A stretch of 64,000 nt of DNA from Alphaproteobacteria bacterium. Lineage in GTDB: Bacteria > Pseudomonadota > Alphaproteobacteria > JAEULC01. Below are positions 13,914-42,117 of the stretch, in pieces. The notes beneath the pieces were generated by a model, which saw nothing but the letters and a program-made list of their open reading frames with translations, was not told where the DNA came from and made no database searches. The stretch is taken from contig JADLEG010000183.1 in the NCBI GenBank assembly GCA_020846275.1, positions 9,693 to 73,692 on the forward strand, written 5' to 3'. Each line of letters begins with the position of its first letter. Positions within the stretch are counted from its first letter, which is position 1. A program made the position numbers and the translations under genes.

Positions 13914-13939
13914 GGCTCCGGTCGTCCCCGCGGGTGAGG

Positions 13940-14989: not shown

Positions 14990-15014
14990 CGTGATCTCCC
15001 CTGTGAGCTTTCGA

Positions 15015-20608: not shown

Positions 20609-20744
20609 GCTGCGTTGCGAGAAGGTGCGGCGGGGGCGCGCGTGGGGGGCGGGGCGGGGCGCGATGGGGTTGTCCTCCCAATCCTCATACGATATGAGTA
20701 GTTATTGCCGCGAACAAAAAGCCCGTCAAGCAACGGAAACAGGG

Positions 20745-21704: not shown

Positions 21705-22697
21705 ATGTCCAAGGCGCTCAACGCACTACGCAACGCCGGCTTCGGGCTGGCGCTGGGGCTGGCGGCGACCGGCGCGCCCGCCTGGTCCGCGACCAACACC
21801 GTCGTCATCTACAACGCCGTCAGCACCAAGCTGATCCAGGCCTTCGCCGAGGAGTTCCAGAAGCAGAACCCGGGCGTCAAGGCCGAGATCATCAGCGGCG
21901 GCAGCGGCGAATTGCTGACCCGCATCAAGGCCGAGCGCGCCAATCCGCGCGGCGACGTGCTGGTCGGCCCGGATGCCGACGTGTTCGACGCCGAGATCGA
22001 CCTGTTCGAAGCGTATGATTCCAAGGAGAAGGCCGGCTTCGACAAGGCCGCCGTGCATCCCCAGGGCAAGTACTACGGTTTCTCCACCAACTTCCAGGCC
22101 TTCATCGTCAACACCAAGATGATGCCGCTGGACAAGGCGCCGAAGAGCTGGGCCGACCTCGCGAAGCCGGAATTCAAGGGCAAGATCCTGATGGCCAACC
22201 CGGCCCAGTCCGGCTCGGCCTATTCGCAGATGCACCAGATCCTGATGCTCTATGGCTGGGACGTGATGGGGAAGATCATCCAGAACGCCACCTTCGTGCC
22301 CAGCTCGAAGCTGGCGTTCCAGAACGTAGCCAAGGGCGAGATCGCGGTCGGGCTGACCAGCGAGTTCAACATCCTGGTATCGAAGCTCGAGGGCAACCCG
22401 GTCGACTTCGTCTATCCCAGCGACGGGACCGCGCTGATCAACGACGCCAACGGCATCATCAAGGGCGGGCCGAACGGCGAGAACGCGCGGAAGTTCATCG
22501 ACTACGTCAGTTCGAAGCAGGCCCACACGATCCTGGTCGACCTCGACAAGCGGCGCTCCGCCCGGCTCGACGTAGCACCGCCTCCCGGCCTGCCGGACGC
22601 CAAGGGCATCAAGACCTTCGCCTACGACTCGGCCGGCGCCGCCAAGAACCGCACCGAGGAGCTCGAGAAGTTCGACAAGCTCTTCTCGGCGAAATAG
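21705..22697 (+). CDS. ABC transporter substrate-binding protein (family 1)
   Basis: Signal peptide …ALGLAATGAPAWSA. PotD/AfuA-like binding protein. 18 bp after the epimerase gene. Confidence 0.85.
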   Translation: MSKALNALRNAGFGLALGLAATGAPAWSATNTVVIYNAVSTKLIQAFAEEFQKQNPGVKAEIISGGSGELLTRIKAERANPRGDVLVGPDADVFDAEIDLFEAYDSKEKAGFDKAAVHPQGKYYGFSTNFQAFIVNTKMMPLDKAPKSWADLAKPEFKGKILMANPAQSGSAYSQMHQILMLYGWDVMGKIIQNATFVPSSKLAFQNVAKGEIAVGLTSEFNILVSKLEGNPVDFVYPSDGTALINDANGIIKGGPNGENARKFIDYVSSKQAHTILVDLDKRRSARLDVAPPPGLPDAKGIKTFAYDSAGAAKNRTEELEKFDKLFSAK

Positions 22698-22775
22698 TTT
22701 CCTCTCTCCTTTGAGCGGGGAGCCCCGGCACGGGCTCCCCGCGCTCTTTTCACCGATCGCGCCTGGACCAGACGC

Positions 22776-23876
22776 ATGCTGTCCGTCCGCGAGCTGACCA
22801 AGACCTTCGGCGCGCCACCCGACCGGCTGGTGGCCGTCGACCGCGTGAGCCTGGACGTCAACGACGGCGAATTCTTCACGATGCTGGGGCCCTCCGGCTG
22901 CGGCAAGACGACGACGCTGCGGATGATCGCCGGGCTCGAGCAGGCGACGTCCGGCTCGATCATGTTCGACGGCCAGGACTACACGCGCGTGCCGCCCCAG
23001 CGCCGCAACATCGGCATGGTGTTCCAGTCCTACGCGCTGTTCCCGCATCTCAGCGTGTTCGAGAACGTGGCCTATGGCCTGCGGCCGCGCGGCGTGGCGC
23101 GTGAAGAGATCGCGAGCCGGACCGACGAGGTGCTGCGCGCGCTGCAGCTCGACCGGTATCGCGACCGCCTGCCGGCCACGCTGTCGGGCGGGCAGCAGCA
23201 GCGCGTGTCGATCGCCCGCGCGCTGGTCTACCGCCCCTCGATGCTGCTGCTCGACGAACCGCTGGCCAACCTGGACGCCAAGCTGCGCGTGCAGATGCGC
23301 GAGGAGATCCGGCGCATCCAGCGCGAGTTCGGGATTCTGTCGCTCTACGTCACGCACGACCAGGAAGAGGCGATGGCGATCTCCGATCGCCTGGCGCTGT
23401 TCAACGCGGGCCGGCTGGTCCAGCTCGGCCGCCCGCGCGATGTCTATCGCCACCCGGCCTCGCTGTTCGCCGCCGAGTTCATCGGCCGGGCCAACCTCCT
23501 GCGCGCCAAGGTACTGGACCGCGCCGCCGGCGCGGCGAAGGTCATGCTGCCCGGCGGCGGCATGGTCGCGGTCCCGCGCGTCGTGGCGCTCGGCGACGCC
23601 GAGACGGCGCGCGTGCCGCCGGATGCCGACGCGCTGCTGATGGCACGGCCGGAATCGATGAAGCTCGGCCCGATCGAGGGCCGCATGCCCGGAAGGATCC
23701 TCCGCGCGCAGGATCTGGGCGGGACGAACCGATATATCATTGCGGCCGAGGCGGCGCTGGGCGAGCTGACGGTCGAGGCCGCGCGCTCGGCGCCGGAATA
23801 CGGCGAGGGTGCGTCGGTCGGGCTGGCGCTCAACGCCGAGGAATGCGTGCTGTTCATCCGGCCGGACCCGCGATGA
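22776..23876 (+). CDS. ABC transporter ATP-binding protein (PotA/FbpC-type)
   Basis: GPSGCGKTT, LSGGQQQRVSIARA, LLLDEPLANLD, and a TOBE C-terminus. Confidence 0.9.
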   Translation: MLSVRELTKTFGAPPDRLVAVDRVSLDVNDGEFFTMLGPSGCGKTTTLRMIAGLEQATSGSIMFDGQDYTRVPPQRRNIGMVFQSYALFPHLSVFENVAYGLRPRGVAREEIASRTDEVLRALQLDRYRDRLPATLSGGQQQRVSIARALVYRPSMLLLDEPLANLDAKLRVQMREEIRRIQREFGILSLYVTHDQEEAMAISDRLALFNAGRLVQLGRPRDVYRHPASLFAAEFIGRANLLRAKVLDRAAGAAKVMLPGGGMVAVPRVVALGDAETARVPPDADALLMARPESMKLGPIEGRMPGRILRAQDLGGTNRYIIAAEAALGELTVEAARSAPEYGEGASVGLALNAEECVLFIRPDPR

Positions 23877-25549
23877 CCGATCGGCGCATGCCCGGCCAGG
23901 CCTTGCCGCTCGTCCTCGGCACCTGCGCGGTCGTCATCGCCCTGCTGTTCCTGGTCTACCCGATCGGCAGCGCGACGCTGGGCGCCTTCCTGCGCAACGG
24001 CAAGCCGCTCGCGATCGAGAACCTGACCCTGGCCAATTTCGAGCGCTTCCTGACCTCCGGCAGCTACCAGCGCGCGTTCTGGCATTCGGTCGTGACGGGC
24101 GCGGCGTCGACCATCGTCGCCACCGCCCTGTCGCTGCCGATGGCCTATGCCGTCGCCCGCGCCGCCATGCCGCTGCGCTCGCTGGTGCTGGCGCTGTCGG
24201 TGCTGCCGCTGATCTCGCCGCCCTTCATCGGCGCCTATGCCTGGGTGATCCTGCTCGGCAACAACGGCATCATCAGCAACCTGCTGCGCGACTATGTCGG
24301 CCTCGGCCTGCCGTCGATCTACGGGCCGTTCGGCGTGACCGTGGCCCTGGCGCTGAGCTACTTCCCCTACACCTTTCTGGTGCTGCAGGGCGCGATGGCG
24401 GCGGTCGACACCAGCATCGAGGAGGCCGCCACCATCGCCGGCGCGTCGCGCTGGCGCGTGCTGCGCACGGTCACCTTTCCGATGATCCTGCCCTCGATCG
24501 CCGCCGGCATGCTGATCGTGTTCATCAAGGCGATCGGCGATTTCGGCGTGCCGGCGATCCTCGGCGGCGAATACCAGGTCCTGCCGACGCTGATCTACTA
24601 CCAGATCCACGGCTTCTTCAACCTGAACGCAGCGGCGGCCATCGCCATGGTGAACGTAGCCCTGACCGTGCTGGCGCTCGGCGCCCTGGCCTGGATCAAC
24701 CGCACGCGCGGCGTCGCGACGGTGACCGGCACGGCACGGCGCGCGGCGCGGCCCCTGCCGGCGGGACTGCGCTGGAGCGCCATCGCCTATGTCTGGCTCG
24801 TGCTCCTGGTCGCCAACCTGCCGCAGCTCGTGGTGGTGTTGTACTCCTTCTCCGAGCGCTGGGGCGACACGCTGCTGCCCTCGGTCTACGGGCTCGAGAA
24901 TTATCGCCGGGTGATGGGCGAGCTTGGCACCGTCGTGTGGAATACGGTGGTGCTGGCCGGCGCGGCCACGATCCTGTGCCTGGCGTTCGGGGCGGTGGCC
25001 GCGCACGCGACCGCGCGCGGGCGGATCTACGGGCGATGGGCGGTCGATCTGATCATCATGGTGCCGTTCGTCCTGCCCGGGCTGGTGATCGGCGTTGCCT
25101 ACCTGACCGCCTTCAACGAAGGGCCGCTGGTGCTGACCGGCACGGCGGCGATCCTGATCCTGGCCTATTTCACGCGGCGCGTGGCCTTCGTGTTCCGCTC
25201 GGCCAGCGCCGCCATCACCCAGGTCGACCGCCGGCTCGAGGAGGCCTCGACGATCTGCGGTGCGGACTGGGCGATGACGATGCGCCGCGTCGTGCTGCCC
25301 CTGATCGCGCCGGCGCTGTTGGCCGGGGGCATCCTGGTCTTCGCCACGCTGATCGGCGAGATCAGCGTCACGGTGCTGCTGTATTCCGCGCGCTGGAAGA
25401 CCATCACCATCGCGATCTACGAGTACCTGCTGGGCAACGACATCGCCAAGGCGAGCGCGCTCGGCACCGTGACGATCGTGCTGACGCTGATCCTGGTCGC
25501 CGGCGCCAGCAGGCTCGCCGGGCGCAACATGGCCGACATGTTCCGCTAG
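23873..25549 (+). CDS. ABC transporter permease, fused two-domain
   Basis: Two tandem BPD_transp_1 domains. I chose the ATG at 23873, which overlaps the ATPase stop (ATGA); the ORF track lists 23843. Confidence 0.8.
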   Translation: MTDRRMPGQALPLVLGTCAVVIALLFLVYPIGSATLGAFLRNGKPLAIENLTLANFERFLTSGSYQRAFWHSVVTGAASTIVATALSLPMAYAVARAAMPLRSLVLALSVLPLISPPFIGAYAWVILLGNNGIISNLLRDYVGLGLPSIYGPFGVTVALALSYFPYTFLVLQGAMAAVDTSIEEAATIAGASRWRVLRTVTFPMILPSIAAGMLIVFIKAIGDFGVPAILGGEYQVLPTLIYYQIHGFFNLNAAAAIAMVNVALTVLALGALAWINRTRGVATVTGTARRAARPLPAGLRWSAIAYVWLVLLVANLPQLVVVLYSFSERWGDTLLPSVYGLENYRRVMGELGTVVWNTVVLAGAATILCLAFGAVAAHATARGRIYGRWAVDLIIMVPFVLPGLVIGVAYLTAFNEGPLVLTGTAAILILAYFTRRVAFVFRSASAAITQVDRRLEEASTICGADWAMTMRRVVLPLIAPALLAGGILVFATLIGEISVTVLLYSARWKTITIAIYEYLLGNDIAKASALGTVTIVLTLILVAGASRLAGRNMADMFR

Positions 25550-26331
25550 AGGCCGGTGACCCGCTTGAGGTCGTCGACCAGTCCCGGCGTCGCGGCCAGG
25601 ACCGAATTGCCCCTGGTCATGCCGTCGCCGGCCAGGAAATCGCTGAAGCGCCCGCCTGCCTCCTCGACCAGCAGCATGCCGGCCAGCACGTCCCAGCTGT
25701 TCAGGTGGAGTTCGCAATAGGCGTCGAGGCAACCCTCGGCGACGCGCGCGAGGCCGAGCGCGGCCGAACCGACCTGGCGCACGTCGCAGCCCGCGTCGAG
25801 CAGCCGGCGCGCCAGGTCGAGGTTGTCGGCAACCGGCCGGCGCTCGGCATAGCCGTACTCGATCATCGCCTGGTCCAGCGCGCCGACATCGCTGACGCGG
25901 ATCGGCGCTTCGTCGCGAAACGAACCGCCGCCCTTCCGGGCCGTGTAGATCGCACCTGTCACCGGCTCCGCGATCGCGCCGACCACCGGCCGGCCGTCCA
26001 CGCAGAAGGCGATCGACACCGCGAAGGACGGCAGGCCGCGCGCGAAGTTGTTGGTGCCGTCGATCGGGTCCACGACCCACAGAAGCGGCGCGCTGGCGCC
26101 GCCGCCTTCCTCGCCCAGGAAACCGTCCCCTGGAAACTCGCGTGATATCCGCTCGCGGATCAACCGTTCGACCGCCAGGTCGGCGGCGGTGACGAAGTCG
26201 CGCCGCCCCTTGGCCTGCACGTTCATCCGCGCCGGGTCGCGGCGATGCTCGAGCGCCAGGGCGGCGCATTCCCGGGCCAGCGCCGTGGCGGTGGCCATGC
26301 GCCGGGCAATGTCGCGATCGGAGATCGTCAT
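25546..26331 (-). CDS. inositol monophosphatase family protein (IMPase/SuhB-like sugar phosphatase)
   Basis: 261 aa from MTISDRDIARRM. Motifs …EEGG…, WVVDPIDGTNNF, …WDVLAG…. The upstream 423 aa of the ORF-track frame was rejected. Confidence 0.85.
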   Translation of the reverse strand: MTISDRDIARRMATATALARECAALALEHRRDPARMNVQAKGRRDFVTAADLAVERLIRERISREFPGDGFLGEEGGGASAPLLWVVDPIDGTNNFARGLPSFAVSIAFCVDGRPVVGAIAEPVTGAIYTARKGGGSFRDEAPIRVSDVGALDQAMIEYGYAERRPVADNLDLARRLLDAGCDVRQVGSAALGLARVAEGCLDAYCELHLNSWDVLAGMLLVEEAGGRFSDFLAGDGMTRGNSVLAATPGLVDDLKRVTGL

Positions 26332-27578
26332 GGATGGTCCCGCGGGGTGGCTACCAGCGAAATACTGCCCGGCAGCCTTGTCGACAAGCTGGAAAGCGGG
26401 ACGCGGATGCGCCGATGGCGCAGCAGGCGCCGCACCGGCCCCCGCCACAGCAGGGCCTGATCGTGCCGCAGCCCGACGCGCGCCGAGTCCAGGTCGGCGC
26501 CGACGCGCAGGCTGGTCGGAAGCGTTGCCAGCCCGGGCACCTCGAAACTCCAGCATTGCGGCACGACGTAGCGGAACTGGGGCGCGATCGCGATGGTCGA
26601 AACCTGCCCCCGCCAGCCGATCCTTCCACCCAGGAAGGCCGCCGTGGCAGCGCCCACGCGCGCGCCCTCGATCGCCGCGAACCCGCTGCTTTCCACCGCC
26701 CGCAGCAGGTTGCCGGCGGCAAAAACGCAAGGCGCACTGGTGCGGCCGATCTGGTCGACCTGGGGTCCGCCGGTGGCGGGGTCCAGGGTCAGCCCGGCCG
26801 AGCGCGCCAGGGGCGAATCCGGCACGAAGTCGCCGGAGAACACGACGGCATCGCAAGGAATCACGCGGCGTCCCTCCGGCGATTCGATCTCGACGCCACT
26901 CACACAGGTTTCGCCGTGGATGTCCGAGATGCGCGTCGTGGCATGGATCGGCACGCCGGCAATGCAGCGGACCAGGGTCGCCACGGGCGCATAGGACATC
27001 GGCCGGTCTTCCGCCTCGACCATCGCCACGACGCTCAATCCGGCATGGCGCGCGGTCAGCAGCACCGAGAACGCGACATGCTCGGTGCCGACCACCACCA
27101 GGCGCTTGCCGTGCAGCGGCACGCCGCGTGCGATCATCTGCTGCAACTGGCCCGTGGTCAGGATGCCGCGTTCCGGCCGTCGCCCGGGAACCAGCCGTGC
27201 CGTCCGGGGCCGTTCGCGGATGCCGGTCGCCAGGATCACCGCCTTGGCGTGGACCGTCGCGGCGCCGGCGCCAGACGACAGGATCTCCAGGCGGGGACCG
27301 GCGTGCAACGCCTGCACCGTCGTGCCGGTGCGGATCTGCACGCGCGCGGGGTCCAGGGCGCCGATCAGCCGGCGGACAAGGCCCGGGCCGGTTTCCAGGC
27401 GGCGCGTGTATTCCCAGCCGAAGCCGGGATGGCGGCAGAAGCGCGGCAGGCCGCCCGGCGCATCGTCGCGATCGATGACCAGCACCGAGCGAACCCCGCC
27501 GTCGATCGCCGCGCGCGCGGCCGCCAGCCCGGCCGGGCCCGCGCCGACGATGGCACAATCGGTCTCGATCGCGCTCAT
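26328..27578 (-). CDS. NAD(P)/FAD-dependent oxidoreductase (pyridine nucleotide-disulfide oxidoreductase-like; HcnB/OoxA/GlpB-type partner subunit)
   Basis: 416 aa. N-terminal CAIVGAGPAGLAAA FAD Rossmann and a second GKRLVVVGTEHVA dinucleotide-binding motif. The ATG at 27578 overlaps the upstream stop (ATGA). Confidence 0.75.
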   Translation of the reverse strand: MSAIETDCAIVGAGPAGLAAARAAIDGGVRSVLVIDRDDAPGGLPRFCRHPGFGWEYTRRLETGPGLVRRLIGALDPARVQIRTGTTVQALHAGPRLEILSSGAGAATVHAKAVILATGIRERPRTARLVPGRRPERGILTTGQLQQMIARGVPLHGKRLVVVGTEHVAFSVLLTARHAGLSVVAMVEAEDRPMSYAPVATLVRCIAGVPIHATTRISDIHGETCVSGVEIESPEGRRVIPCDAVVFSGDFVPDSPLARSAGLTLDPATGGPQVDQIGRTSAPCVFAAGNLLRAVESSGFAAIEGARVGAATAAFLGGRIGWRGQVSTIAIAPQFRYVVPQCWSFEVPGLATLPTSLRVGADLDSARVGLRHDQALLWRGPVRRLLRHRRIRVPLSSLSTRLPGSISLVATPRDHP

Positions 27579-28960
27579 TCCGCCGCCCGCCGGCTGGCAT
27601 GCTCGAACGCGGCCTGCACGCGGGCGCCGCAGAAGAACCCCTGGCAGCGCCCGAACATCGCGCGGGTGCGGCGCTTCAGCGCCTTCAGCGTGCGCGGGGC
27701 CAGCGGCGAGGCGAGCGCGTCGCGGATCTCGCCCATGCTGACGCCCTCGCAATGGCAGACCATCTCGCCATAGGCGGGATCGCGGGCGACGCGCGCCGCG
27801 TCGCGCCATGGGCGCTCGCCGCCCTCGAGAAGCGAGGGAACGCGAACCGGCGCGAGCTCCGCCTTGCGTTCCGCCCGCAGCATGCCATCGAACGCCAGCG
27901 CGGCGACATGTTCCGCGATGCCCAGCGCGCCCGAAAGCCCCGTCGACCGGATGCCGCCGACGGTGATCCAGCGCCGGTCGCGATGGGCGGCGATGCGGTA
28001 TTCCGGCCGCTCGGTCGCGGGCCGGACCCCGCAATAGATCGCCGTCACGTCGTGATCGAGCAGCGCCGGCATCATGGCGCGCGCCGCGGCGTCAAGCTTC
28101 GCCAGCCCGTCGCGCGTGACGCGCCAGTCATCCGGGTCGTCGATGTCCTCGGCGGTCGGGCCGAGCAGCACGTTGCCGAACGCCGTCGGCGCCATGAGCA
28201 CCCCGCGATAGGTGGGCGAAGGGACCGGCTTCAGGATCACGTCGAGCAGGGGCCGCGCGCTCTTGTCGAAAACCATGAACTCGCCGCGGCGCGGCCGGAT
28301 CGCGAAGTCCGCCAGTCCCGCCAGGGCATCGACCTTGTCGCCCCACAACCCGCCGCAATTCACCACGAGGCCGCAGGCGACCGCGCCCGTGGCGGTGGAC
28401 AGCGTCCAGCCGGCCTCCTCGCGCAAGGCGCTCGACACGGCGCTCGACGAGCGGAACTCGACGCCATTGGTCACGGCATCCAGCGCATAGGCATAGGGTG
28501 TCGAGAACGGGTCGACGATCGCTTCCTCGGGCTCCCACATCGCGGCCAGCGCGCCGGGCGCGAGCGACGGCACCCGGCGGTAGATCGCGTCGCGATCGAC
28601 CAGTTCGGCCGAGCGATAGCCGGCGGCGACCGTGGCGCGATGCATCTCCGCCAGGCTCGCGGCCTGTGCCTCGTTCCAGGCGACGGTCAGACTGCCGACC
28701 GACAGGATCGGCAGGCCCATCGCCGGCGCCTCGGCGCGGTAGCGCTGGTGGCCGCGCGTGACGAGCCGGTTCTCCAGCGTGCCGAACGGCGTGTCCGAGC
28801 CGGTCGACAGGATCGCCGAGTTGCCCTTGCTGGCGCCGTCGCCGAGGTCGCTGCGCGCTTCGATCAGGATTGTCCGCAGGCGATAGCGCGAAAACTCGCG
28901 GGCGACGGCGCAGCCCACCACCCCGGCGCCGACGACCGCGACGTCGTAACGCTCGCTCAC
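27575..28960 (-). CDS. FAD-dependent oxidoreductase, GlpA-like, with C-terminal BFD-like [2Fe-2S]-binding domain
   Basis: GTG start with a GGAGG Shine-Dalgarno sequence 10 nt upstream. VAVVGAGVVGCAVAREF…ILIEARSDLGDGASKGNSAILSTG resembles the GlpA/GlpD N-terminus. The C-terminal CHCEGVSMGEIRDA…GRCQGFFCG is a BFD-like 2Fe-2S motif. The 303-aa N-terminal extension in the ORF track is low-complexity and was rejected. Confidence 0.75.
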   Translation of the reverse strand: MSERYDVAVVGAGVVGCAVAREFSRYRLRTILIEARSDLGDGASKGNSAILSTGSDTPFGTLENRLVTRGHQRYRAEAPAMGLPILSVGSLTVAWNEAQAASLAEMHRATVAAGYRSAELVDRDAIYRRVPSLAPGALAAMWEPEEAIVDPFSTPYAYALDAVTNGVEFRSSSAVSSALREEAGWTLSTATGAVACGLVVNCGGLWGDKVDALAGLADFAIRPRRGEFMVFDKSARPLLDVILKPVPSPTYRGVLMAPTAFGNVLLGPTAEDIDDPDDWRVTRDGLAKLDAAARAMMPALLDHDVTAIYCGVRPATERPEYRIAAHRDRRWITVGGIRSTGLSGALGIAEHVAALAFDGMLRAERKAELAPVRVPSLLEGGERPWRDAARVARDPAYGEMVCHCEGVSMGEIRDALASPLAPRTLKALKRRTRAMFGRCQGFFCGARVQAAFEHASRRAAE

Positions 28961-29793
28961 GGCGCGAACGCCTCCACGCGGCGCCAGCACAAGGTGCGGT
29001 ACTCCGGCAGGTCGCCGCGAATGCCGACGTGATGCGCCTGCACCTCGCACCACAGCGCCTCGCGAACCGCTAGGACGGGCGCCAGCGCGCGCGCCAGCTC
29101 CATGTCCACGCCGCCATGGCGGGCAAGAAGCCGCGCGGCCTGGCGGTCGTCCAGCCCGAACAGGACGATGATCTGCGCCAGGTCGACGGCGGGATCGCCG
29201 TAGCCGGCGTATTCCCAATCGACGACATAGGCGCGCGGCCCGGCCATGATGAAGTTCTCGGGGATGAGGTCGGCGTGGATCAGGCAGCGCGGCGTCAAGG
29301 CCGGCGCCGCCGCGAGCAGCGCTTCCGCCAGACGTCTCCGCTCCGCTGCGAACGCGGTTGCCGGCAAGCCGGCCAGGTTGCCGCGACAGATCGCGACCGG
29401 GTCGAACCGGTTGAGGTCCATGGGCGCCGGATAGGCATGGACGCGGCGCAGCGCCTCGGCCACCAAGTCCAGATCGGCATCGGCGATCGGGTCTTCGTGG
29501 CGCAAGGTGCGCCCCTCGATGAAGGCCGTCACCAGCATGCCGTCGCCCTGGTGGATCACCGTCGGCGCGACGCCCGCGTCGGCCGCCAGGCGCGCGCAGC
29601 GCGCCTCGTTCTCGCGCCGCACGAAGTGGTGCGGCAGGTCGATCCCCACGCGCGCGAAATAGGTTTCGCCGCCCGCCGTCACCCGGAAGTTCTGGTTGGT
29701 GCGCCCGCCCGGCCAGGGCTCGATGCGGGGGACGCCGCGCCAGCACGGCAGGGCGCGAAGGCGATCGGCGGCGCCGATGGCGGAACTGTCCAT
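28957..29793 (-). CDS. phosphotransferase family kinase (APH/choline-ethanolamine kinase/ThiK-like)
   Basis: 278 aa. Brenner motif LIHADLIPENF and VDWEYAGYGDP are typical of LicA/ThiK/APH kinases. Its stop overlaps the downstream GTG (GTGA). Confidence 0.8.
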   Translation of the reverse strand: MDSSAIGAADRLRALPCWRGVPRIEPWPGGRTNQNFRVTAGGETYFARVGIDLPHHFVRRENEARCARLAADAGVAPTVIHQGDGMLVTAFIEGRTLRHEDPIADADLDLVAEALRRVHAYPAPMDLNRFDPVAICRGNLAGLPATAFAAERRRLAEALLAAAPALTPRCLIHADLIPENFIMAGPRAYVVDWEYAGYGDPAVDLAQIIVLFGLDDRQAARLLARHGGVDMELARALAPVLAVREALWCEVQAHHVGIRGDLPEYRTLCWRRVEAFAP

Positions 29794-29795
29794 GG

Positions 29796-30584
29796 TCAGG
29801 GCTGGATGATCTCGATCCGCGTGCCGGCCAGTCCGGCCGCGAAATCCGGCGGCGCCGCGTCGGTGACAAGGTGATCGATCTCGCCGGGGGGCACGGCGTT
29901 CAGCCGCGCGGACCAGCCCAGCTTGGGCCCGATCGCCAGCGCGGCGCAGCGCCGGGACTGCGCGGCCATGCAGCGCGCGACGGCCGCGTCGTCGGGATGC
30001 GCGAAGCTCAAGCCGCCCTTGGCGTCGAAGGCGTCGCACGACAGCAGCGCGAGATCGGCATTGAACTGGCGGATCATCGACTCGGCGAACATGCCGCCGG
30101 TCGCCAGCGACGTGCGCCGCACGAAGCCTCCGAGCAGGCAGACCGTGATGCGCGGGTTCTCGACCAGTATATGCGCGACATTCACGGCGGAGGTCACGAT
30201 GAACAGTTCGTACTCGGCCATGGCGAGCGCGCGCGCGAGCGCCGTCACGGTCGAGCCGTCGTTGAGGAACAGCGTGTTGCCGGGTTCGATCAGGCCCAGC
30301 GCGGCCTCCGCGACCCGGCGCTTCTCGTCGACATGCTTCTGCTCGCGCACCGTCAGCGCTTCTTCCGCCGGGCGGACGGCGCGCATCGCGGCACCGCCAT
30401 AGCTGCGATCCAGCACGCCCTCGCGCGCGAGCGCCTCCAGATCCCGCCGGATCGTCACCGGCGACGCGCCCAGCACCTCGCTCAATTCCGCCACCGAAAC
30501 GGCGCCGCGGGCCGCCAGCTCGCGCTTCAGCACATGGCGCCGCGCGATCGGATTGCGCCGGGCGGTCGTTGCTGCCTCGGTCAT
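29796..30584 (-). CDS. DeoR/GlpR family transcriptional regulator
   Basis: 262 aa. N-terminal HTH …RRHVLKRELAARGAVSVAELSEVLGASPVTIRRDLEAL plus a DeoR C-terminal sugar-phosphate sensor domain. First gene of the operon. Confidence 0.85.
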   Translation of the reverse strand: MTEAATTARRNPIARRHVLKRELAARGAVSVAELSEVLGASPVTIRRDLEALAREGVLDRSYGGAAMRAVRPAEEALTVREQKHVDEKRRVAEAALGLIEPGNTLFLNDGSTVTALARALAMAEYELFIVTSAVNVAHILVENPRITVCLLGGFVRRTSLATGGMFAESMIRQFNADLALLSCDAFDAKGGLSFAHPDDAAVARCMAAQSRRCAALAIGPKLGWSARLNAVPPGEIDHLVTDAAPPDFAAGLAGTRIEIIQP

Positions 30585-30608
30585 TGCGGATACCCACGGC
30601 GGGTGATT

Positions 30609-30682
30609 GCCATGCCTGCTGATATCATTTCGATCACTAACGTTCAAAAAAAATATATAGACAATCATTATTATGATCGATA
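30609..30682. promoter_or_regulatory. divergent promoter/operator region with candidate DeoR-type repeats
   Basis: AT-rich 129-bp intergenic region. TTTCGATC occurs twice (30617-30624 and 30675-30682). Palindromes TGATATCA and ATCATTATTATGAT. GGGGGAGAGGG Shine-Dalgarno sequence before the SBP ATG. Confidence 0.35.
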
Positions 30683-30713
30683 GCGTTTCGATCGGAGCAG
30701 GGGGAGAGGGCTC

Positions 30714-32717
30714 ATGCAAAAGCGGAATCGGTTCGCCATTGCCGTTGCTTGCTTGGCGGGCGCCTGGTGCGCCTTTCCCGGGGGAGCGAACGCGAGCAGC
30801 TGTCCGACGGTCGCCGATCCCAAGGGCGTCAAGACGAAATTTCCGCAGCAGGCCGAGCGCGCCGAACTGGAGCAGGCCGGCCACAAGCTCGCGCTTGCCG
30901 AGAACCCGCTATTCAAGGGTCTGGTCCAGAGCGGCGCCTTGCCGCCGGTCGACCAGCGCCTGCCGGCGGAGCCGCTGGTCCTGCTTCCCTACGAGGAATG
31001 CGGCAAGTACGGCGGCACGCTGCGCGGCCTGTCGCGCGCGCTGGAATCCGGCACTTCGGAGATCCTGAGCTGGCGCCAGGTCAACCTGGTGCGCCTCAGC
31101 GACGATCTGACGACGCTGGTGCCGAACGTCGCCAAGTCCTGGACCTGGTCCGACGACCGCAAGTCGATCACCTTCGTGCTGCGCAAGGGCCATCGCTGGT
31201 CGGACGGCAAGCCGTTCACCACCGACGACGTGATGTTCTATTTCGAGGACATCATCAAGAACAAGGACCTGCATCCCTCGACGCCGTCGCCCTGGGCGGC
31301 CGGCGGCAAGCCGGTGGAGGTGGAGAAGATCGATGACGTCACGTTCAAGCTGACCTTCGCCGCGCCGCTTCCCAGCCTGCTGCACTACCTGGCGACGGGC
31401 GGTTCGTTCTTCGAGGTGTGGGCGCCGAAGCACTACTACACGGCCTATCACATCCGCTACAACCCGAAGGCCGATGAAGAAGCCAAGGCGGCCGGCGCCG
31501 AGAACTGGGTCAAGCGGTTCAAGCAGCTCTGGGACAAGTGGAAGGACGCCGAGACCATCAATCCCGCCGCGGTCAAGCGGCCGACGCTCGAGAGCCATAT
31601 CCTCGAGGTCGAGACCAACACCCAGCGGCGCGCCTTCATCGCCAACCCCTACTATTTCAAGGTCGACAGCGCGGGTAACCAGCTTCCCTACATCGACCGG
31701 CACAACGAGCGCTTCCTCGAGAAGGAGGTCGGTCTGCTGGCCGTGCTGAACGGCGAGATCGACCAGAAGGCGCAGGGGCTCGGCCTCGAGAACTACGCGG
31801 TACTGAAGGAGAACGAGGCCAAGGGCGCCTATCGGCTGACCATGCCGCCGGGTGCGGCAGGCGATCCGATCGCGTTCAACATCACGCACACCGACCCGGT
31901 CCTGCGCCAGATCTTCGCCGACGTGCGGTGGCGGCAGGCGATGTCGCTGGCGCTCAACCGGGCCGAGATGAACGAAACCTTGTGGTACGGGCTCGGCCGG
32001 CCGCAGCAAGCCCTGCCCCTGGGCGTTCCGTTCGTCACCGACGCGGATCGCGACTACATGATCCGGCACGATCCGAAGAAGGCGAACCAGCTTCTCGACG
32101 AGATGGGCCTTAAGCGCGGCGCGAACAACATGCGCGTGCGGCCCGACGGCAAGCCGCTGACCCTGCTGTGGGAGTACACGACGCAATTCGCCTCGCCCGG
32201 CTATGTCCAACTCGTACAGGGCTACTGGCGCGCCGTCGGCGTGGAAGTGAACCTGAAGGAGATCACCACGGCGCTGACGCGGCAGAAGGCCAGGGCCGGC
32301 GACGCCGACATCAACATGGAATGGGACATCCCCTTCGAACCCAACCTGATCAGCCAGGTCGAGCTGTATACGCCGCCGTATCGCGGGGAATCGCCGCTGT
32401 TCGGCGCCGCCTGGCGCGAATGGCACAGCTCGAAGGGCGCCAAGGGCCAGGAGCCGCCGGCCTGGGCGAAGCGGCTCTACCAGCTCGAGGACGAATGGAG
32501 CACGATCGTGCCCGGCAGCCCGCGCTACATGGAGATCGGGCGCGAGATGGTGAAGCTGAACCTGGAGAACATGACGATCATCGGCACCGTCGCGAACCTG
32601 CCGGGGCCGACCATCGTGTCGCGCAAGCTCGCCAACGTGCACGACTGGACGATCCAGCACTACAACTACGCGCGCACCTATCCGTTTCGTCCCGACCAGT
32701 GGTACTACAAGCAGTAG
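30714..32717 (+). CDS. ABC transporter substrate-binding protein, family 5 (DppA/OppA-like; peptide/opine/nickel type)
   Basis: 667 aa with signal peptide and SBP_bac_5 architecture. First gene of a DppABCDF-like operon. Confidence 0.9.
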   Translation: MQKRNRFAIAVACLAGAWCAFPGGANASSCPTVADPKGVKTKFPQQAERAELEQAGHKLALAENPLFKGLVQSGALPPVDQRLPAEPLVLLPYEECGKYGGTLRGLSRALESGTSEILSWRQVNLVRLSDDLTTLVPNVAKSWTWSDDRKSITFVLRKGHRWSDGKPFTTDDVMFYFEDIIKNKDLHPSTPSPWAAGGKPVEVEKIDDVTFKLTFAAPLPSLLHYLATGGSFFEVWAPKHYYTAYHIRYNPKADEEAKAAGAENWVKRFKQLWDKWKDAETINPAAVKRPTLESHILEVETNTQRRAFIANPYYFKVDSAGNQLPYIDRHNERFLEKEVGLLAVLNGEIDQKAQGLGLENYAVLKENEAKGAYRLTMPPGAAGDPIAFNITHTDPVLRQIFADVRWRQAMSLALNRAEMNETLWYGLGRPQQALPLGVPFVTDADRDYMIRHDPKKANQLLDEMGLKRGANNMRVRPDGKPLTLLWEYTTQFASPGYVQLVQGYWRAVGVEVNLKEITTALTRQKARAGDADINMEWDIPFEPNLISQVELYTPPYRGESPLFGAAWREWHSSKGAKGQEPPAWAKRLYQLEDEWSTIVPGSPRYMEIGREMVKLNLENMTIIGTVANLPGPTIVSRKLANVHDWTIQHYNYARTYPFRPDQWYYKQ

Positions 32718-32763
32718 CCGCGTCCTGGCCGCGCCGGCCGGGGCCGGCGTCGGGAGCTGAGCG

Positions 32764-33750
32764 ATGATCCGATTGCTGGCGCAGCGGCTGCTCTACATGG
32801 CGCTGACGCTGTGGCTTGTCTCCGTGGTCGCCTTCGTGCTGATCCAGCTTCCGCCGGGCGACTATGCCGAGACCTACCTGACCGAGAAGCAGCAGTCCGG
32901 CGCGGCGGTCAGCCAGGAAGAGCTGCAGAACATGCGCCAACTCCTGGGCATCGACCGCCCGTGGCACGCACAGTACCTCTCCTGGGCCACGGGCATCGTG
33001 ACGCGGGGCGATTTCGGCTACTCGTTCGAATGGCGCCGACCGGTGACCGAGGTGATCGGCGAGCGGCTGCCGCTGACCCTCGTCATCGCGTCCTGCACCC
33101 TCGTCTTCATGTATGCCGTATCGCTGCCGATCGGCATCTACTCCGCGGTGCGGCAGTACTCGATCGCCGACCACGCCTTCTCGCTGGTCGGCTATGTCGG
33201 CCTGGCGACGCCGAACTTCCTGCTCGCCCTGGTGCTGATGTACATGGGCCAGCAATGGTTCGGCCAGAGCGTCGGCGGGCTGTTCTCGCCGCAATACGCG
33301 GAAGCGCCGTGGAGCCTCGACAGGCTGGTCGACCTCGCCGCCCATCTCTGGGTTCCGATCGTCGTCCTCGGCATGGCGGGCACCGCCAACCTGATCCGCT
33401 CGATGCGCGCGCTGATGCTGGACGAGCTGGGCAAGATGTACGTGGTCGCCGCCCGCGCGTCCGGGCTTTCGCCGCTGCGGCTGCTGCTCAAGTACCCGGT
33501 GCGCATGGCCATCAACCCGATCGTGGCAACGCTGGGATGGCGCCTCACCTTCGTCATCTCCGGCGCGCCGATCGTGGGCGTCGTGATGGCCCTGCCCGAC
33601 ACCGGCCCGCTGTTCCTGCACGCGCTGCTGAACCAGGACATGCAGCTTGCCGGCGCCATGGTGTTCATCTACTGCGCGCTGACCATCCTCGGCACGTTCG
33701 TCTCGGACCTGCTGCTGGTCGTGGTCGACCCGCGCATCAAGATGTCCTGA
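32764..33750 (+). CDS. ABC transporter permease (DppB/OppB-like)
   Basis: 328 aa. N-terminal …LWLVSVVAFVLIQLPPGDYAE…, BPD_transp_1. Confidence 0.9.
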   Translation: MIRLLAQRLLYMALTLWLVSVVAFVLIQLPPGDYAETYLTEKQQSGAAVSQEELQNMRQLLGIDRPWHAQYLSWATGIVTRGDFGYSFEWRRPVTEVIGERLPLTLVIASCTLVFMYAVSLPIGIYSAVRQYSIADHAFSLVGYVGLATPNFLLALVLMYMGQQWFGQSVGGLFSPQYAEAPWSLDRLVDLAAHLWVPIVVLGMAGTANLIRSMRALMLDELGKMYVVAARASGLSPLRLLLKYPVRMAINPIVATLGWRLTFVISGAPIVGVVMALPDTGPLFLHALLNQDMQLAGAMVFIYCALTILGTFVSDLLLVVVDPRIKMS

Positions 33751-33757
33751 GGCCGCA

Positions 33758-34873
33758 ATGGTCGCCGCCGCCACGCCGATCGCCTCGCGGATCAAGCGTC
33801 CCGACATAGCGTCGCAATGGCAGCTCATGTGGTGGCGCTTCAAGCGGCATCACATGGCGATCGCCGGCGCGTCGGTGCTGGCGGTGTTCGTCGCCGTCGC
33901 CCTGCTGGCCGAGTTCCTGGCGCCCTGCGCGCCGCTGACGCGCAATCCGCGCTACCTCTCCGGGGCCCCAATGCTGGTGCATGTCCTCGACGCCCAGGGC
34001 GGACTCCATTCGCCGTTCGTCCACGCGCGGTCGAGCAAGCGCGACCCGGTGACCCTGCGGCAGCTTGCCGTTGTCGACGAATCGCGCCCCTGGCCGATCG
34101 AATTCTTCGTTCGTGGCGACCCCTACCGGTTCTGGGGCCTGGTCGAAACCGATCTGCACCTGTTCGGCGTGAAGGGCGGCTTCATCCATCTGTTCGGCAC
34201 CGACCATCTCGGCCGCGACCTTTTCACCCGCTGCATGTACGCGACGCGCGTCTCGCTGTCGGTCGCGGTGATCGGCGTGCTGGTGTCGTTCGTGCTGGGC
34301 GCGGTGATCGGGGGCATCGCCGGGTATTTCGGCGGCGCCATCGACGTGTTCGTCATGCGGCTGATCGAGTTCATCCGCTCGGTCCCGACACTGCCGCTCT
34401 GGCTGTCGCTGACGGCTGCCTTGCCGCGCGACTGGACGTCGCTGCAGATCTACGTGGCGGTCACGGTGATCCTGGGCCTGCTCGGCTGGACCCATCTGGC
34501 GCGCACCGTGCGTAGCAAGCTCCTGTCGCTGCGCGAGGAGGACTTCGTGGTGGCGGCGCGGCTTGCCGGCTGCACCGACACGCGGCTGATCGGCCGGCAT
34601 TTGCTGCCCGCCTTCCTCAGCTACCTGATCGTCGATCTAACCATCGCCTTCCCCGAGATCCTGTTGGCCGAAACCTCGCTCAGCTTCCTCGGCCTGGGGC
34701 TGCGCGAGCCGGCGGAAAGCTGGGGCGTGCTGCTCTACGCGGCGCAGAACATCCGCTCGATCGCCCATATGCCCTGGCTCTTGATTCCCGGCCTGTTCGT
34801 GATCGTCGCGGCGCTTGCCTTCAACTTCGTCGGCGACGGCATGCGCGACGCGGCCGATCCCTACGCGAAGTAG
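33758..34873 (+). CDS. ABC transporter permease (DppC/OppC-like)
   Basis: 371 aa. OppC N-terminal region plus BPD_transp_1. Confidence 0.9.
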   Translation: MVAAATPIASRIKRPDIASQWQLMWWRFKRHHMAIAGASVLAVFVAVALLAEFLAPCAPLTRNPRYLSGAPMLVHVLDAQGGLHSPFVHARSSKRDPVTLRQLAVVDESRPWPIEFFVRGDPYRFWGLVETDLHLFGVKGGFIHLFGTDHLGRDLFTRCMYATRVSLSVAVIGVLVSFVLGAVIGGIAGYFGGAIDVFVMRLIEFIRSVPTLPLWLSLTAALPRDWTSLQIYVAVTVILGLLGWTHLARTVRSKLLSLREEDFVVAARLAGCTDTRLIGRHLLPAFLSYLIVDLTIAFPEILLAETSLSFLGLGLREPAESWGVLLYAAQNIRSIAHMPWLLIPGLFVIVAALAFNFVGDGMRDAADPYAK

Positions 34874-34882
34874 GCCGAAGCG

Positions 34883-35908
34883 GTGGGGACCGACGCGCTC
34901 CTGGAGATCCAGGACCTTCGCATCGACCTGCGCGCCGAGGGCGGATCGGTTCCCGTGATCGATGGGGTCAGCCTTTCGCTTCGACCCGGAAAGGTGCTGG
35001 CGATCGTCGGCGAAAGCGGATCCGGCAAGAGCGTGACCGCGCAGTCGATCCTGCGCCTGCTGCCGCGGCAGATGCCGATCGTCGGCGGGCGCATCCTGTT
35101 CCGGCTCGACCCGTCCGCGCCGCCGGTCGACCTGGCGGCGGTCGAACCGGACGGGGCCGTGATCCAGTCGATCCGCGGCAACCGCATCGCCATGATCTTC
35201 CAGGAGCCGATGAGCTCGTTCTCGCCGGTGCACACGATCGGCAGCCAGATCGGCGACGTGCTGCGGCTGCATCGCGGCCTCAACGGGCAGGCGCTGCGCG
35301 ATGCGATGGCCGAGCTGCTGCGCAAGGTCGGGATTCCCGACCCGGCGCGCGCGATCGACCGCTATCCGCACGAGTATTCCGGCGGCATGCGCCAGCGTGC
35401 GATGATCGCCAAGGCGCTGGCGTGCAATCCCGCGCTCTTGATCGCCGACGAGCCGACGACGGCGCTCGACGTCACGATCCAGGCCCAGGTCCTGGACCTG
35501 ATGCGCGGGCTCAAGGCCGAGCTCGGCATGGCCATGATCTTCATCACCCACGATCTCGGCATCGTGGCGCAGATGGCCGACGATGTGGCGATCATGTACA
35601 CCGGGCGGATCGTGGAACAGGGGCCGGTGCGCGCCATCTTCCGCCAGCCCCAGCACCCCTACACGCAGAACCTGCTGCGCGCCGTGCCGCGGCTGGGCGG
35701 GGTCGGGGGCTGGCGCAGCCTGAAGCCGATCCAGGGCAGCGTGCCGAACCTCTACGCCATGCCCGCGGGCTGCACGTTCCATCCCCGCTGCGGCCGGTTC
35801 ATCGCCGGGACGTGCGACGTGATCGCGCCAGCCACCACCGGCCTCGCCGGTGGGCACAGCGTGAGCTGCCATCTCTACCGGGATGCGCCGGCCGGGGCGG
35901 TCGCATGA
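34883..35908 (+). CDS. ABC transporter ATP-binding protein (DppD/OppD-like)
   Basis: GESGSGKS Walker [20 protein letters not shown] signature, and an oligopeptide-transporter C-terminal domain. Confidence 0.9.
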
Positions 35909-36951
35909 CGGCGCTGATCGAACTCGACGACGTCAAGGTGCACTATGGCGTGCGCAAGGGTGTCTTCGCGCGCCGCCTGGTGGGCGTCGTCCATGCGGTC
36001 GATGGCGTCAGCATCACGATCGACCGCGGCGAGACGCTCGGCCTGGTCGGCGAGAGCGGCTCGGGCAAGACCACGCTCGGCCGGGCGATTCTGCGCGTGG
36101 TGGAGCCGACCCACGGGCGCGTGCTCTTCCATCGCGACGGCAAGCCGGTCGACCTGCGCGGCCTGGAGCGGGCGGAGATGCGGCGCATGTGGCGGCACAT
36201 GCAATTGATCTTCCAGGATCCCTACGCCTCGCTGAATCCGCGCATGACCGTGCGCGACATCATCGCCGAGCCGCTGGTCGCCAACGGGATCGGCAACGCG
36301 GCGGAGATCGCCGATCGCGTGGCGGACATGGTGCGCCGCGTCGGCCTGTCGCTGGAGCATCTCGGCCGATACCCGCACGCCTTCAGCGGCGGCCAGCGCC
36401 AGCGCATCTCGATCGCCCGCGCGCTGGTGCTGCGGCCCGAGTTCATCGTCTGCGACGAGCCGGTCTCCGCCCTCGACGTCTCGATCCAGGCGCAGATCCT
36501 GAACCTGCTGAAGGAACTGCAGGAAGAACTCGGCCTGACCTACCTGTTCATCGCCCACGACCTGGCGGCCGTGTCCTACGTCAGCGACCGCGTCGCCGTC
36601 ATGTATCTCGGCCAGATCGTCGAGCTGGCGCCGACGTCGCAGCTCTACTACGCGCCACGCCATCCCTATACCGAGGCGCTGATGTCGGCGATCCCGGTCG
36701 CGGACCCCGACCGCGCGATGCGCCCGCAGCTGCTGCCGGGCGAGCGCCCGGATCCGGCGAACCCGCCGTCCGGCTGCCGCTTCCATACGCGCTGCCCCTA
36801 CGCCGATGCGGCCTGCCGGAACGATCCGCCCGCGCTCGTCGAACGCGCGGCGGGGCACTGGGTCGCCTGCCACCACGCCGATCGACTGACCCTGCGCGGC
36901 GCGACGGTCGATGCCGCCGTGCCGCAACCAGCCCTTTCCACGACAGCCTGA
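35905..36951 (+). CDS. ABC transporter ATP-binding protein (DppF/OppF-like)
   Basis: The ATG overlaps the upstream stop (ATGA). GESGSGKTT, FSGGQRQRISIARAL, and an oppF C-terminal domain with Cys residues. Confidence 0.9.
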   Translation: MTALIELDDVKVHYGVRKGVFARRLVGVVHAVDGVSITIDRGETLGLVGESGSGKTTLGRAILRVVEPTHGRVLFHRDGKPVDLRGLERAEMRRMWRHMQLIFQDPYASLNPRMTVRDIIAEPLVANGIGNAAEIADRVADMVRRVGLSLEHLGRYPHAFSGGQRQRISIARALVLRPEFIVCDEPVSALDVSIQAQILNLLKELQEELGLTYLFIAHDLAAVSYVSDRVAVMYLGQIVELAPTSQLYYAPRHPYTEALMSAIPVADPDRAMRPQLLPGERPDPANPPSGCRFHTRCPYADAACRNDPPALVERAAGHWVACHHADRLTLRGATVDAAVPQPALSTTA

Positions 36952-36967
36952 GGATACGCGCCTACAA

Positions 36968-39692: not shown

Positions 39693-39981
39693 CCGTCCGA
39701 GCCACTGGCCCCGGAACCTTCATCGCGACTTGGACGATGCGCCCTGCACCCGTTACCTCCCGCTGATCTGGACATGTCATTGAATCCACCGGTCGTACGA
39801 AAGGCCGGAAGTTTCAACGAAACTGTCAGCGCTCCCGGGTGCGTCGCACCCAATTCATTCAGCCAGAAATGCGACCTGTATAAGAATTGTTTATAGTGGC
39901 AGCATATGCCCAGCAACGGCGAGCCGCGCAAATCCTCTTGGATACGGCTGCAACGCAGAACGGATGAAGGAGATAGGCAGA

Positions 39982-40959: not shown

Positions 40960-41043
40960 GACAGGTCGGGTAAGCTAGGTGCCGCCGCGCCGATTCCAGG
41001 CGGCGCAGCGGCACCGTTTACGGCGAAGACGCGGGACCAGGCC

Positions 41044-42111
<1,068 letters not shown>

Positions 42112-42117
42112 TCGGGC

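Follow-up and report, generated by a model that had tools for sequence, protein, structure and literature searches.

An operon encoding a DeoR-family regulator, a choline/ethanolamine-family kinase and a GlpO-related flavin/iron-sulfur dehydrogenase, possibly for catabolism of a non-glycerol alcohol

We analysed a 64,000-nucleotide stretch of an Alphaproteobacteria bacterium genome (contig JADLEG010000183.1; hereafter the window), in which a minus-strand operon of five genes, A to E, encodes a DeoR/GlpR-family repressor (A), a small-molecule kinase (B), a DAO-fold FAD dehydrogenase with a C-terminal BFD-type [2Fe-2S] domain (C), a PNDR-fold partner subunit (D) and an inositol monophosphatase (IMPase)-family phosphatase (E). 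Our best explanation of the whole, held tentatively and as possible rather than probable, is that the operon is a DeoR-repressed catabolic module of a kinase and a phospho-ester dehydrogenase re-tooled for an alcohol other than glycerol. B would phosphorylate the hydroxyl of this small alcohol and C would oxidise the phospho-ester at the carbon adjoining the esterified carbon, with electrons predicted to pass from the FAD of C through the [2Fe-2S] cluster to the FAD of D and on to quinone or O2 rather than NAD(P).

Because the window is ~69% G+C, raw lists of open reading frames were useless, and gene frames were chosen by third-position GC, one frame per stretch, together with start and stop mapping. 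Five minus-strand genes were found to fill positions 25546-30584 exactly, bearing out an earlier note on this DNA that had described them as tightly coupled, and Pfam supported the domain calls made there for all five proteins. The overlaps it described are present at B/C (GTGA) and at C/D and D/E (ATGA), while A and B are instead separated by a 2-nt spacer. The five genes are translationally coupled and form one tightly coupled unit. Promoter and terminator scans found no promoter-like or terminator-like site inside the operon, no Rfam family was found in 19-45 kb of the window, and none of the five proteins (0/5) reached an NCBIfam equivalog cutoff.

Ancestry and active site of the dehydrogenase

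The earlier note had described C as a GlpA-like FAD dehydrogenase with a BFD domain. The dehydrogenase and BFD assignments held, and the protein carries four invariant cysteines (C402, C404, C439 and C444); the likeness to GlpA did not hold, as C is closer to GlpO and a His and a Lys are replaced in it. Against NCBIfam, C scored 191 bits with NF033460 (Mycoplasma-type GlpO) versus 122 bits with TIGR03377 (E. coli-type GlpA, cutoff 553). Its nearest solved structure was Mycoplasma pneumoniae GlpO (4x9m, 117 bits), with Bordetella 3dme, glycine oxidase and L2HGDH next in line; GlpO was also nearer than the beta subunit of Pyrococcus proline dehydrogenase (1y56_B), which gave only 49 bits.

An exhaustive search returned 844 clusters of the C family at E<1e-30; the majority are DAO+BFD proteins of full length, and in some a D-like half is fused on. 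One relative (P0124, locus L086) stands in the gene order GlpK - DAO/BFD - PNDR, with a GlpK of 547 bits that exceeds the NCBIfam subfamily cutoff of 498. The C-like protein of this locus shares 46% identity with C, and the PNDR partner shares 35% with D over the full length, which upholds the parallel to glycerol catabolism (GlpR, kinase, dehydrogenase) drawn earlier. Among 80 metagenome loci, 76 encode an enzyme with the His/Lys pair described below, and 42 of these 76 have an FGGY kinase gene next to that of the dehydrogenase in the stretch retrieved. Judged by their sequences, these comparisons show that C and D descend from dehydrogenases that normally stand behind an FGGY glycerol kinase, and that in the window's clade this kinase has been replaced by B, a kinase of the choline/ethanolamine family.

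D is always downstream of C in the related loci. Its Pyr_redox_2 fold agrees with the two-Rossmann FAD/NAD(P) oxidoreductase proposed earlier; the second Rossmann motif and NAD(P) binding do not, as VVGTEHVAFS stands where GxGxxG is expected. Because this second dinucleotide motif is degenerate, NAD(P) binding by D is doubtful and NAD(P) is an unlikely acceptor. Pfam gave no DUF1667/MOX match in D, including its C-terminal extension, at E<=0.01, and no DUF1667/MOX gene was found in any related locus listed with Pfam. Similarity to SoxA was weak (61 bits in NCBIfam, 29 bits to 2gag).

In the alignment with GlpO, Arg320 and Ser348 are retained in C as Arg313 and Ser339, His51 becomes Ser52 and Lys258 becomes Arg252. 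GlpO His51 has been proposed to act as the base that takes up the C2-OH proton, mutation of the equivalent His92 abolishes L2HGDH activity, and the conserved residues of D-amino-acid oxidase do not include this His (PMC10726252). In glycine oxidase the position is occupied by Gly. Lys258 presumably also has a role in GlpO, judging from its place in the alignment. Since both this catalytic His and the Lys have been exchanged, C probably does not act as a glycerol-3-phosphate (G3P) dehydrogenase.

The change is shared by the relatives of the operon. Ser, Ala, Cys or Thr fills the His51 position in the kinase-linked orthologues of C, and such a residue together with Arg was found in 16/17 of them; of the 150 closest representatives of the C family at 50% clustering, 121 have His plus Lys, and within this set small residues pair with Arg as S/R, C/R (twice), V/R (three times) and T/R. 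Sorted by neighbouring kinase, APH/choline-kinase-type loci comprised 16 with small residue plus Arg and 1 with His plus Lys, and FGGY-type loci 3 and 42, respectively. This association of active-site signature with kinase type is strong, on counts that are not phylogenetically independent, a point to be set with the objections gathered below. Two other clades with the small residue plus Arg, like the window's, are without a canonical GlpK: P0152 has a divergent FGGY kinase (381 bits; cutoffs 590 and 498), an APC permease and a DeoR gene alongside, and P0165 has a class II aldolase alongside.

These data bear on a serious rival, that the operon simply serves glycerol or a small polyol. B would then be a non-orthologous replacement of GlpK and C-D an ordinary glycerol-phosphate dehydrogenase or, in a sub-version, one for the stereo-inverted sn-glycerol-1-phosphate. 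We consider this unlikely overall. The homology of C and D to GlpK-linked dehydrogenases and the GlpR-like regulator favour it, as does L006, where a kinase of the window's family accompanies a His/Lys-type C; in this locus (5600-15600) the kinase-C-D trio lies between transposase genes (Mutator, IS110, DDE). Against it stand the disappearance of the hydroxyl-deprotonating His from nearly all kinase-linked orthologues, when most other relatives keep it, and the inactivity of L2HGDH once the equivalent His is lost.

Soil metagenomes also contained many modules of the order (DeoR) - APC permease (2A0304 amino-acid/choline family) - GlpK-like FGGY kinase - His/Lys-type DAO/BFD - PNDR (L104, L107, L114, L118, L123, L128 and others, as well as L130, L106 and L110), whose FGGY kinases score 350-406 bits, under the GlpK cutoffs. 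A choline-kinase-type kinase lies divergently beside the module in L130 and L106, L130 having in addition a gene for a DMGDH-like enzyme, and a DMGDH-like gene is the divergent neighbour in L110. In these three loci the kinase or DMGDH-like genes and the APC-permease modules are arranged as if working together.

The kinase, the related loci and candidate substrates

B contains a Brenner motif (HADLIPEN) and a DWEY motif, and scores 42.6 bits against PF01633 (cutoff 29). Its closest PDB sequences were 3dxq, an uncharacterised Mesorhizobium loti protein, and LicA; Foldseek searches with the AlphaFold model (pLDDT 94.6) had 3dxq, LicA and Plasmodium vivax ethanolamine kinase (2qg7) as top matches. 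Sequence and predicted fold therefore agree in assigning B to the choline/ethanolamine-kinase subgroup. This upholds the view of the earlier note that the kinase is not of FGGY type, and the search which that note had proposed returned this subgroup rather than ThiK, MtnK or aminopropanol kinases. LicA's hydroxyl-binding Thr29 and Asp176 and its pocket Tyr197 correspond to T32, D175 and Y195 in B. Relatives of B are few, with ~113 at >=43% identity among 5.8 billion clusters and then a gap down to 34%, and nearly all come from uncultured Alphaproteobacteria.

Two named kinase functions were tried and rejected. ThiK models gave 73 bits (TIGR02721, cutoff 299) and 26 bits (NF007620, cutoff 206). 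No methylthioribose kinase (MtnK) or aminopropanol kinase occurred among the sequence matches or the 50 best structural matches of B, and a methylthioribose-cycle context was dismissed on the MtnK result. The ThiK score also argues against a salvage or biosynthetic role, in which B would act in thiamine salvage or in LicA-like supply of phosphocholine for envelope decoration, with the flavoproteins as unrelated neighbours. Many B homologues carry the JGI label "thiamine kinase-like enzyme", and ThiK and LicA are detectable relatives of B; however, no lic or thi genes lie nearby among the window genes scanned, B overlaps C and C overlaps D, the trio stays invariant from 82% to 40% kinase identity, and DeoR control with attached importers is typical of catabolism. 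We regard such a role as very improbable.

Kinases 30-38% identical to B adjoin a ~850-aa DMGDH-like enzyme (DAO + FAO_M + GCV_T) in 42 of 70 loci (L019, L025, L034, L035, L045, L074, L079 and 35 more among L011-L080), which span Actinomycetota, Chloroflexota, Dormibacterota, Planctomycetota and Alphaproteobacteria. An IMPase is also present in 7 of the 42 and an APC permease in many; our searches found no description of this cluster, which may demethylate N-methyl amino-alcohol phosphates. Because a DMGDH-like gene is the neighbour in 42/70 of these distant loci, the wider kinase family appears to work habitually with amine-oxidising flavoenzymes.

Closer relatives of the operon were collected as 18 related loci (L001-L010, L081-L085 and L173-L175; the L002 sequence ends inside C). 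The order kinase-C-D is invariant in all 18, over the identity range given above, and most of them have a DeoR gene ahead of the kinase. A check for co-occurrence of the five-gene set, which the earlier note had suggested, thus had a divided outcome: B-C-D with DeoR is conserved, and the full set of five recurs in only one other assembly (L173). Kinase identity to B is 82% in L173, where synteny is complete, 77% in L001 and 74% in L174. Source annotations of the relatives are all generic, including those of the one cultured carrier, the soil isolate Mesorhizobium sp. B2-1-8. Its plasmid pB2-1-8 (L175, NZ_CP083953.1 421148-425273) encodes DeoR, the kinase (WP_140758425.1, 40%), a C with the Thr/Arg signature (WP_140758424.1, 54%) and a D that is shorter (WP_140758423.1, 50%). 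Genes for a Dpp/Opp-type ABC system lie divergently from these, with two aminotransferase genes beyond them.

The core occurs in three main settings. In the window, L001, L002, L004, L009, L173 and L174, an operon for an Opp/Nik-type importer, a PehA-like hydrolase and an MR/MLE protein runs divergently from DeoR. In a second, Tagaea-type setting (L003, L005, L081-L083), a 430-aa glycerol-1-phosphate (G1P)-dehydrogenase-like gene (192 bits; 147 bits to PDB 9h4x) is divergent from DeoR and a PhnS2/T2/U2-like importer follows, with an IolG-like gene in L003 and L081. A 220-aa protein follows D in L003, L005, L007, L008 and L081-L083, has only weak signals of a phosphate-binding TIM barrel without a family match, and is absent from the window; in L081, this gene and the G1P-dehydrogenase-like gene lie at 13439-14104 and 7808-9100, respectively. 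In the third setting (L084 and the P0091 contig), two CUT1-type permeases lie inside the operon, and a UgpC-like ATPase (418 bits) and a binding protein are divergent.

Within the reading of a re-tooled module, the substrate may be an ethanolamine- or serinol-type amino alcohol, and the oxidation an oxidative deamination that releases ammonia. We place less confidence in this version and consider it possible but rather doubtful. Five points speak for it: the base is lost, the kinase is of the choline/ethanolamine family, distant kinases have amine-oxidising neighbours, the binding proteins are of the PotD/PhnS type, and the phosphatase resembles HisN, whose own substrate is an amino-alcohol phosphate. 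The product would be phosphoglycolaldehyde from phosphoethanolamine and dihydroxyacetone phosphate from serinol phosphate, and the second of these would explain why no further enzyme is conserved. A still more specific proposal, which we think somewhat unlikely, is that C-D is a flavin/iron-sulfur "amino-alcohol-phosphate dehydrogenase" evolved from a G3P dehydrogenase through His to Ser and Lys to Arg changes, and that the operon and the kinase/DMGDH-like (+ IMPase) clusters are two faces of a wider, so far unrecognised mode of amino-alcohol degradation at the phospho-ester level, the latter being an aerobic, folate-linked counterpart of phosphocholine demethylation in Eubacterium limosum.

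Several observations weigh against the amino-alcohol version or the re-tooling itself. Apart from the dependence among the signature counts, L006 is the sole exception to the signature, and the role of His51 in GlpO is only proposed, so that another residue could serve as base. LicA Glu213, which pairs with the charge of choline, is not kept in B (L211). CUT1 transporters are of the sugar/polyol/G3P type, and the settings with these or with G1P-dehydrogenase-like and IolG-like genes suit a polyol better than an amine. Moreover, the core comes with transporters of three unrelated families, and the imported compound may thus differ by lineage. The CUT1/Ugp-like transporter within the operon and the G1P-dehydrogenase-like and IolG-like neighbours equally count in favour of glycerol or a small polyol, and on all of these grounds a polyol substrate, including a stereo-inverted glycerol phosphate, has to be taken seriously. 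The kinase and the importers speak against glycerol: the nearest characterised kinases act on choline, ethanolamine and thiamine, their family is not known for glycerol, and high-affinity Opp-type and PhnS-type importers would be unexpected for it.

If the re-tooling is correct, a swap of kinase family and two active-site residues can turn a module of glycerol kinase and G3P dehydrogenase, part of central metabolism, to a new substrate, and bacteria would have a third way, after lyases and gamma-glutamylation, to consume amino alcohols from lipids or other esters. If the substrate is glycerol, the operon would be an ordinary non-orthologous kinase displacement. The signature itself, His plus Lys or small residue plus Arg at two aligned positions, offers a simple means to sort several thousand proteins annotated as "FAD-dependent oxidoreductase" or "glycerol-3-phosphate dehydrogenase", and the cultured Mesorhizobium carrier makes the question of function directly testable.

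Regulatory region, neighbouring genes and the phosphatase

The coordinates of the operon and its neighbours are collected in Table 1. The best NCBIfam matches of A were AgaR and haloarchaeal GlpR, both under cutoff. The spacer between A and the divergent operon holds a direct repeat, GATAnCnTTTCGATC, at 30621-30635 and 30679-30693 (copies GATATCATTTCGATC and GATAGCGTTTCGATC, 15 nt each, 58 nt apart), and an inverted repeat, TCGATCA/TGATCGA; the repeats flank an AT-rich core. A block ATGATTGTCTAT...TGATC is kept in an alignment of five genomes whose proteins share only 57-91% identity. These elements are candidate DeoR operators and divergent promoters.

Table 1 Features of the operon and its neighbourhood in the window
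Feature	Position	Strand	Size and evidence
A, DeoR/GlpR-family repressor, first operon gene	29796..30584	-	262 aa; Pfam HTH_DeoR + DeoRC
B, choline/ethanolamine-kinase-family small-molecule kinase	28957..29793	-	278 aa; Pfam APH 95 bits, Choline_kinase 43 bits
C, DAO-fold FAD dehydrogenase with C-terminal BFD-type [2Fe-2S] domain, catalytic subunit	27575..28960	-	461 aa, GTG start; DAO 193 bits, Fer2_BFD 39 bits
D, FAD-binding PNDR-fold partner subunit with ~110-aa C-terminal extension	26328..27578	-	416 aa; Pyr_redox_2 84 bits
E, IMPase/SuhB/HisN-family phosphatase, lineage-specific last gene	25546..26331	-	261 aa; Inositol_P 206 bits
Divergent regulatory region, candidate DeoR operators	30585..30713	.	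AT-rich 129-bp spacer
Divergent Opp/Nik-type ABC importer: 667-aa SBP_bac_5 protein, two permeases, two ATPases	30714..36986	+	Pfam/NCBIfam; start of second ATPase (35883..36986) approximate
PehA-like phosphonate-monoester/phosphodiester/sulfate-ester hydrolase, alkaline-phosphatase superfamily	36911..38536	+	NF045661 PehA 584 bits
Enolase-superfamily (MR/MLE) protein, last gene of divergent operon	38556..39692	+	Weak NCBIfam matches only
Convergent PhnS2/T2/U2-like ABC importer (binding protein, ATPase, fused permease)	21705..25549	+	All three under NCBIfam cutoffs

In the seven loci of the first setting, the Opp importer is head-to-head with DeoR and the PehA-like gene follows the Opp genes; MR/MLE genes take the same position in L001, L173 and L174. 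This divergent operon, which the earlier note did not bring into its reading, is thus the partner that stays with the core in the window's lineage. The hydrolase is a clear relative of PehA below the equivalog cutoff of NF045661 (900 bits). In the window's lineage, an ester would probably be imported by the Opp-type transporter and cleaved inside the cell by the PehA-like hydrolase, freeing the substrate of B.

A similar arrangement was seen on plasmid pSC52_2 of Rhodobacteraceae bacterium SC52 (L176, CP049030.1 178000-187891), where genes for PhnW, PhnX and a sulfatase-like hydrolase come next in an Opp-type operon. The binding protein encoded there shares 41% identity with that of the window, and the hydrolase shares 36% with the PehA-like protein. 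The gene content suggests uptake and cleavage of aminoethylphosphonate esters and, by analogy, points to an amino-alcohol or related ester as the compound handled by the window system. No phosphonate catabolic genes, including phnW and phnX, were found among the window open reading frames scanned.

The phosphatase was less tightly tied to the operon. E belongs to the PF00459 family without an equivalog-level match to HisN (TIGR02067, 169 bits; cutoff 275) or SuhB (NF008027, 143 bits; cutoff 332). An IMPase comes directly after D in 2 of 18 loci, those of the window and L173 (67% identical to E), and is absent from this position in L174, L001 and all more distant loci. Because of this restriction, dephosphorylation is not part of the conserved system, contrary to the pathway of phosphorylation, oxidation and dephosphorylation outlined in the earlier note, and the IMPase is a recent add-on. 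Where present, it may hydrolyse the phospho-carbonyl product, as PhnX does with phosphonoacetaldehyde, or the phosphomonoester left by PehA-like cleavage; in the latter case it could act in the manner of AccG of the agrocinopine (acc) operon, on the released monoester.

This second role leads to another alternative, an acc-like scavenging of esters. In the acc operon, an SBP_bac_5 ABC importer and a DeoR-family repressor are encoded together with a phosphodiesterase and an IMPase-like phosphatase. In a system of this kind, a phosphodiester, a sulfate ester or a phosphonate monoester would enter through Opp and be split by the PehA-like enzyme, and the IMPase would dephosphorylate the monoester, placing the phosphatase upstream of the kinase, with B-C-D processing one moiety. 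The divergent Opp and PehA-like genes in seven loci fit this scheme, as do the Rhodobacteraceae plasmid with its homologous binding protein and hydrolase flanking PhnW/PhnX, and L004, whose IMPase homologue (50% identical to E) lies 9 kb away beside the PehA-like gene and not after D. However, the acc phosphodiesterase is GlpQ-type rather than PehA-type, IMPase homologues of Agrobacterium Ti plasmids are just 31-36% identical to E, and B-C-D persists in other lineages that have neither Opp nor PehA-like genes. The closest plasmid homologue of the IMPase, on Sinorhizobium meliloti pSymB, stands among phosphatases and a Na/Pi transporter and is uninformative for the operon. We give this scheme little weight as a full account, as it is silent on the role of B-C-D; it overlaps with the explanation of a kinase-dehydrogenase module re-tooled for a non-glycerol alcohol and does not replace it.

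On the other side of the operon, the stop codon of the convergent PhnS2-like importer overlaps that of E by 4 nt. L173 shares this importer block, including genes for an aldose epimerase and a GntR regulator, and L003, L004, L009 and L081-L083 have related fused-permease transporters within the operon or next to it. The importer is thus a possible partner of the operon, and its standing as a sure partner was downgraded: the window holds four such systems, and the adjacency may therefore be chance.

The four PhnS2/PotD-like ABC systems, mostly with fused permeases, lie at 72-2258, 11071-14989, 21705-25549 and 39964-44193, an unusual density. The first gene of the convergent transporter operon (20700-21686) is of the aldose-1-epimerase family, and a gene for a GntR/FCD regulator (19880-20539) is upstream on the other strand, as in L173. 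Elsewhere in the window, G+C drops from about 0.68-0.72 to 0.59-0.62 over ~9 kb at 46000-55000, which may be horizontally acquired DNA. Two large, well-supported minus-strand open reading frames at 3287-5875 and 5888-9211 (862 and 1107 aa) had no NCBIfam match at E<=1e-8. The minus-strand gene at 56656-58569 encodes a PNDR/SelD-related fusion protein, with 332 bits to TIGR03169 (above cutoff) and 342 bits to the full-length fusion model TIGR04369 (cutoff 700).

Comparison with known systems

The earlier note knew of no characterised pathway of this composition, and NCBIfam and literature searches likewise yielded no equivalog and no paper for a pathway that joins a non-FGGY kinase to DAO/BFD and PNDR proteins; the literature on kinases with phospho-amine flavoenzymes offers analogies only.

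GlpK-linked two-subunit G3P dehydrogenases (Thermococcus by description, L086 and ~40 metagenome loci) have the same order of kinase, DAO+[2Fe-2S] protein and PNDR protein and are often DeoR-controlled. The window shares with them the DAO protein with C-terminal BFD domain and the PNDR partner directly downstream, and differs in its APH/choline-kinase-type kinase, not FGGY, and in Ser/Arg for His/Lys. "GlpTk-NOX-MOX" of Thermococcus kodakarensis is a G3P dehydrogenase of this DAO/BFD-PNDR architecture (PMC11962113); unlike it, the window has no detected MOX/DUF1667 gene or domain. Anaerobic GlpABC does not match either: C scores far below the GlpA cutoff, and GlpB- or GlpC-like genes are absent among the window genes scanned.

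M. pneumoniae GlpO has the same fold as C and has in common with it the Ser of the N-S motif, Arg320 and Ser348. The position of GlpO His51, which is His92 in L2HGDH (8w75), is occupied by Ser52 in C, and that of Lys258 by Arg252. C has an additional BFD [2Fe-2S] domain and a partner subunit, whereas GlpO is a soluble oxidase acting alone. The kinase LicA (4r77/4r7b), 2qg7 and 3dxq are the top sequence and fold matches of B at 19-28% identity, and B forms a separate small clade with different neighbours. HcnABC, opine oxidase and heterotetrameric sarcosine oxidase are analogous in architecture; in the window the Fe-S domain is fused to C rather than separate, and the D-SoxA similarity is weak.

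In phosphonate catabolism, the phosphonate isostere of phosphoethanolamine, 2-aminoethylphosphonate, undergoes oxidative deamination by the DAO-family enzymes PbfC and PbfD, after which PhnX hydrolyses what they form (PMC10590968). By description, this is the same chemistry as proposed for the window, whose neighbourhood includes PhnS-like transporters and a PehA-like hydrolase. PbfC and PbfD differ in being single-subunit enzymes of other DAO subfamilies that act on C-P substrates and need no kinase. Phosphorylation as a first step of amine catabolism has precedents, and ethanolamine or aminopropanol kinase pathways with a phospho-lyase exist. In such pathways a kinase activates the amino alcohol first, as we propose here, and a corrinoid methyltransferase or a PLP lyase acts downstream, not a flavin/Fe-S dehydrogenase. 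Eubacterium limosum (MthK/MthB), for instance, phosphorylates choline before acting on the amine (PMC12155760).

Genes of the four kinds known from the agrocinopine locus all occur in the window, though with a hydrolase of the PehA type and an IMPase to which those of Ti plasmids are just 31-36% identical.

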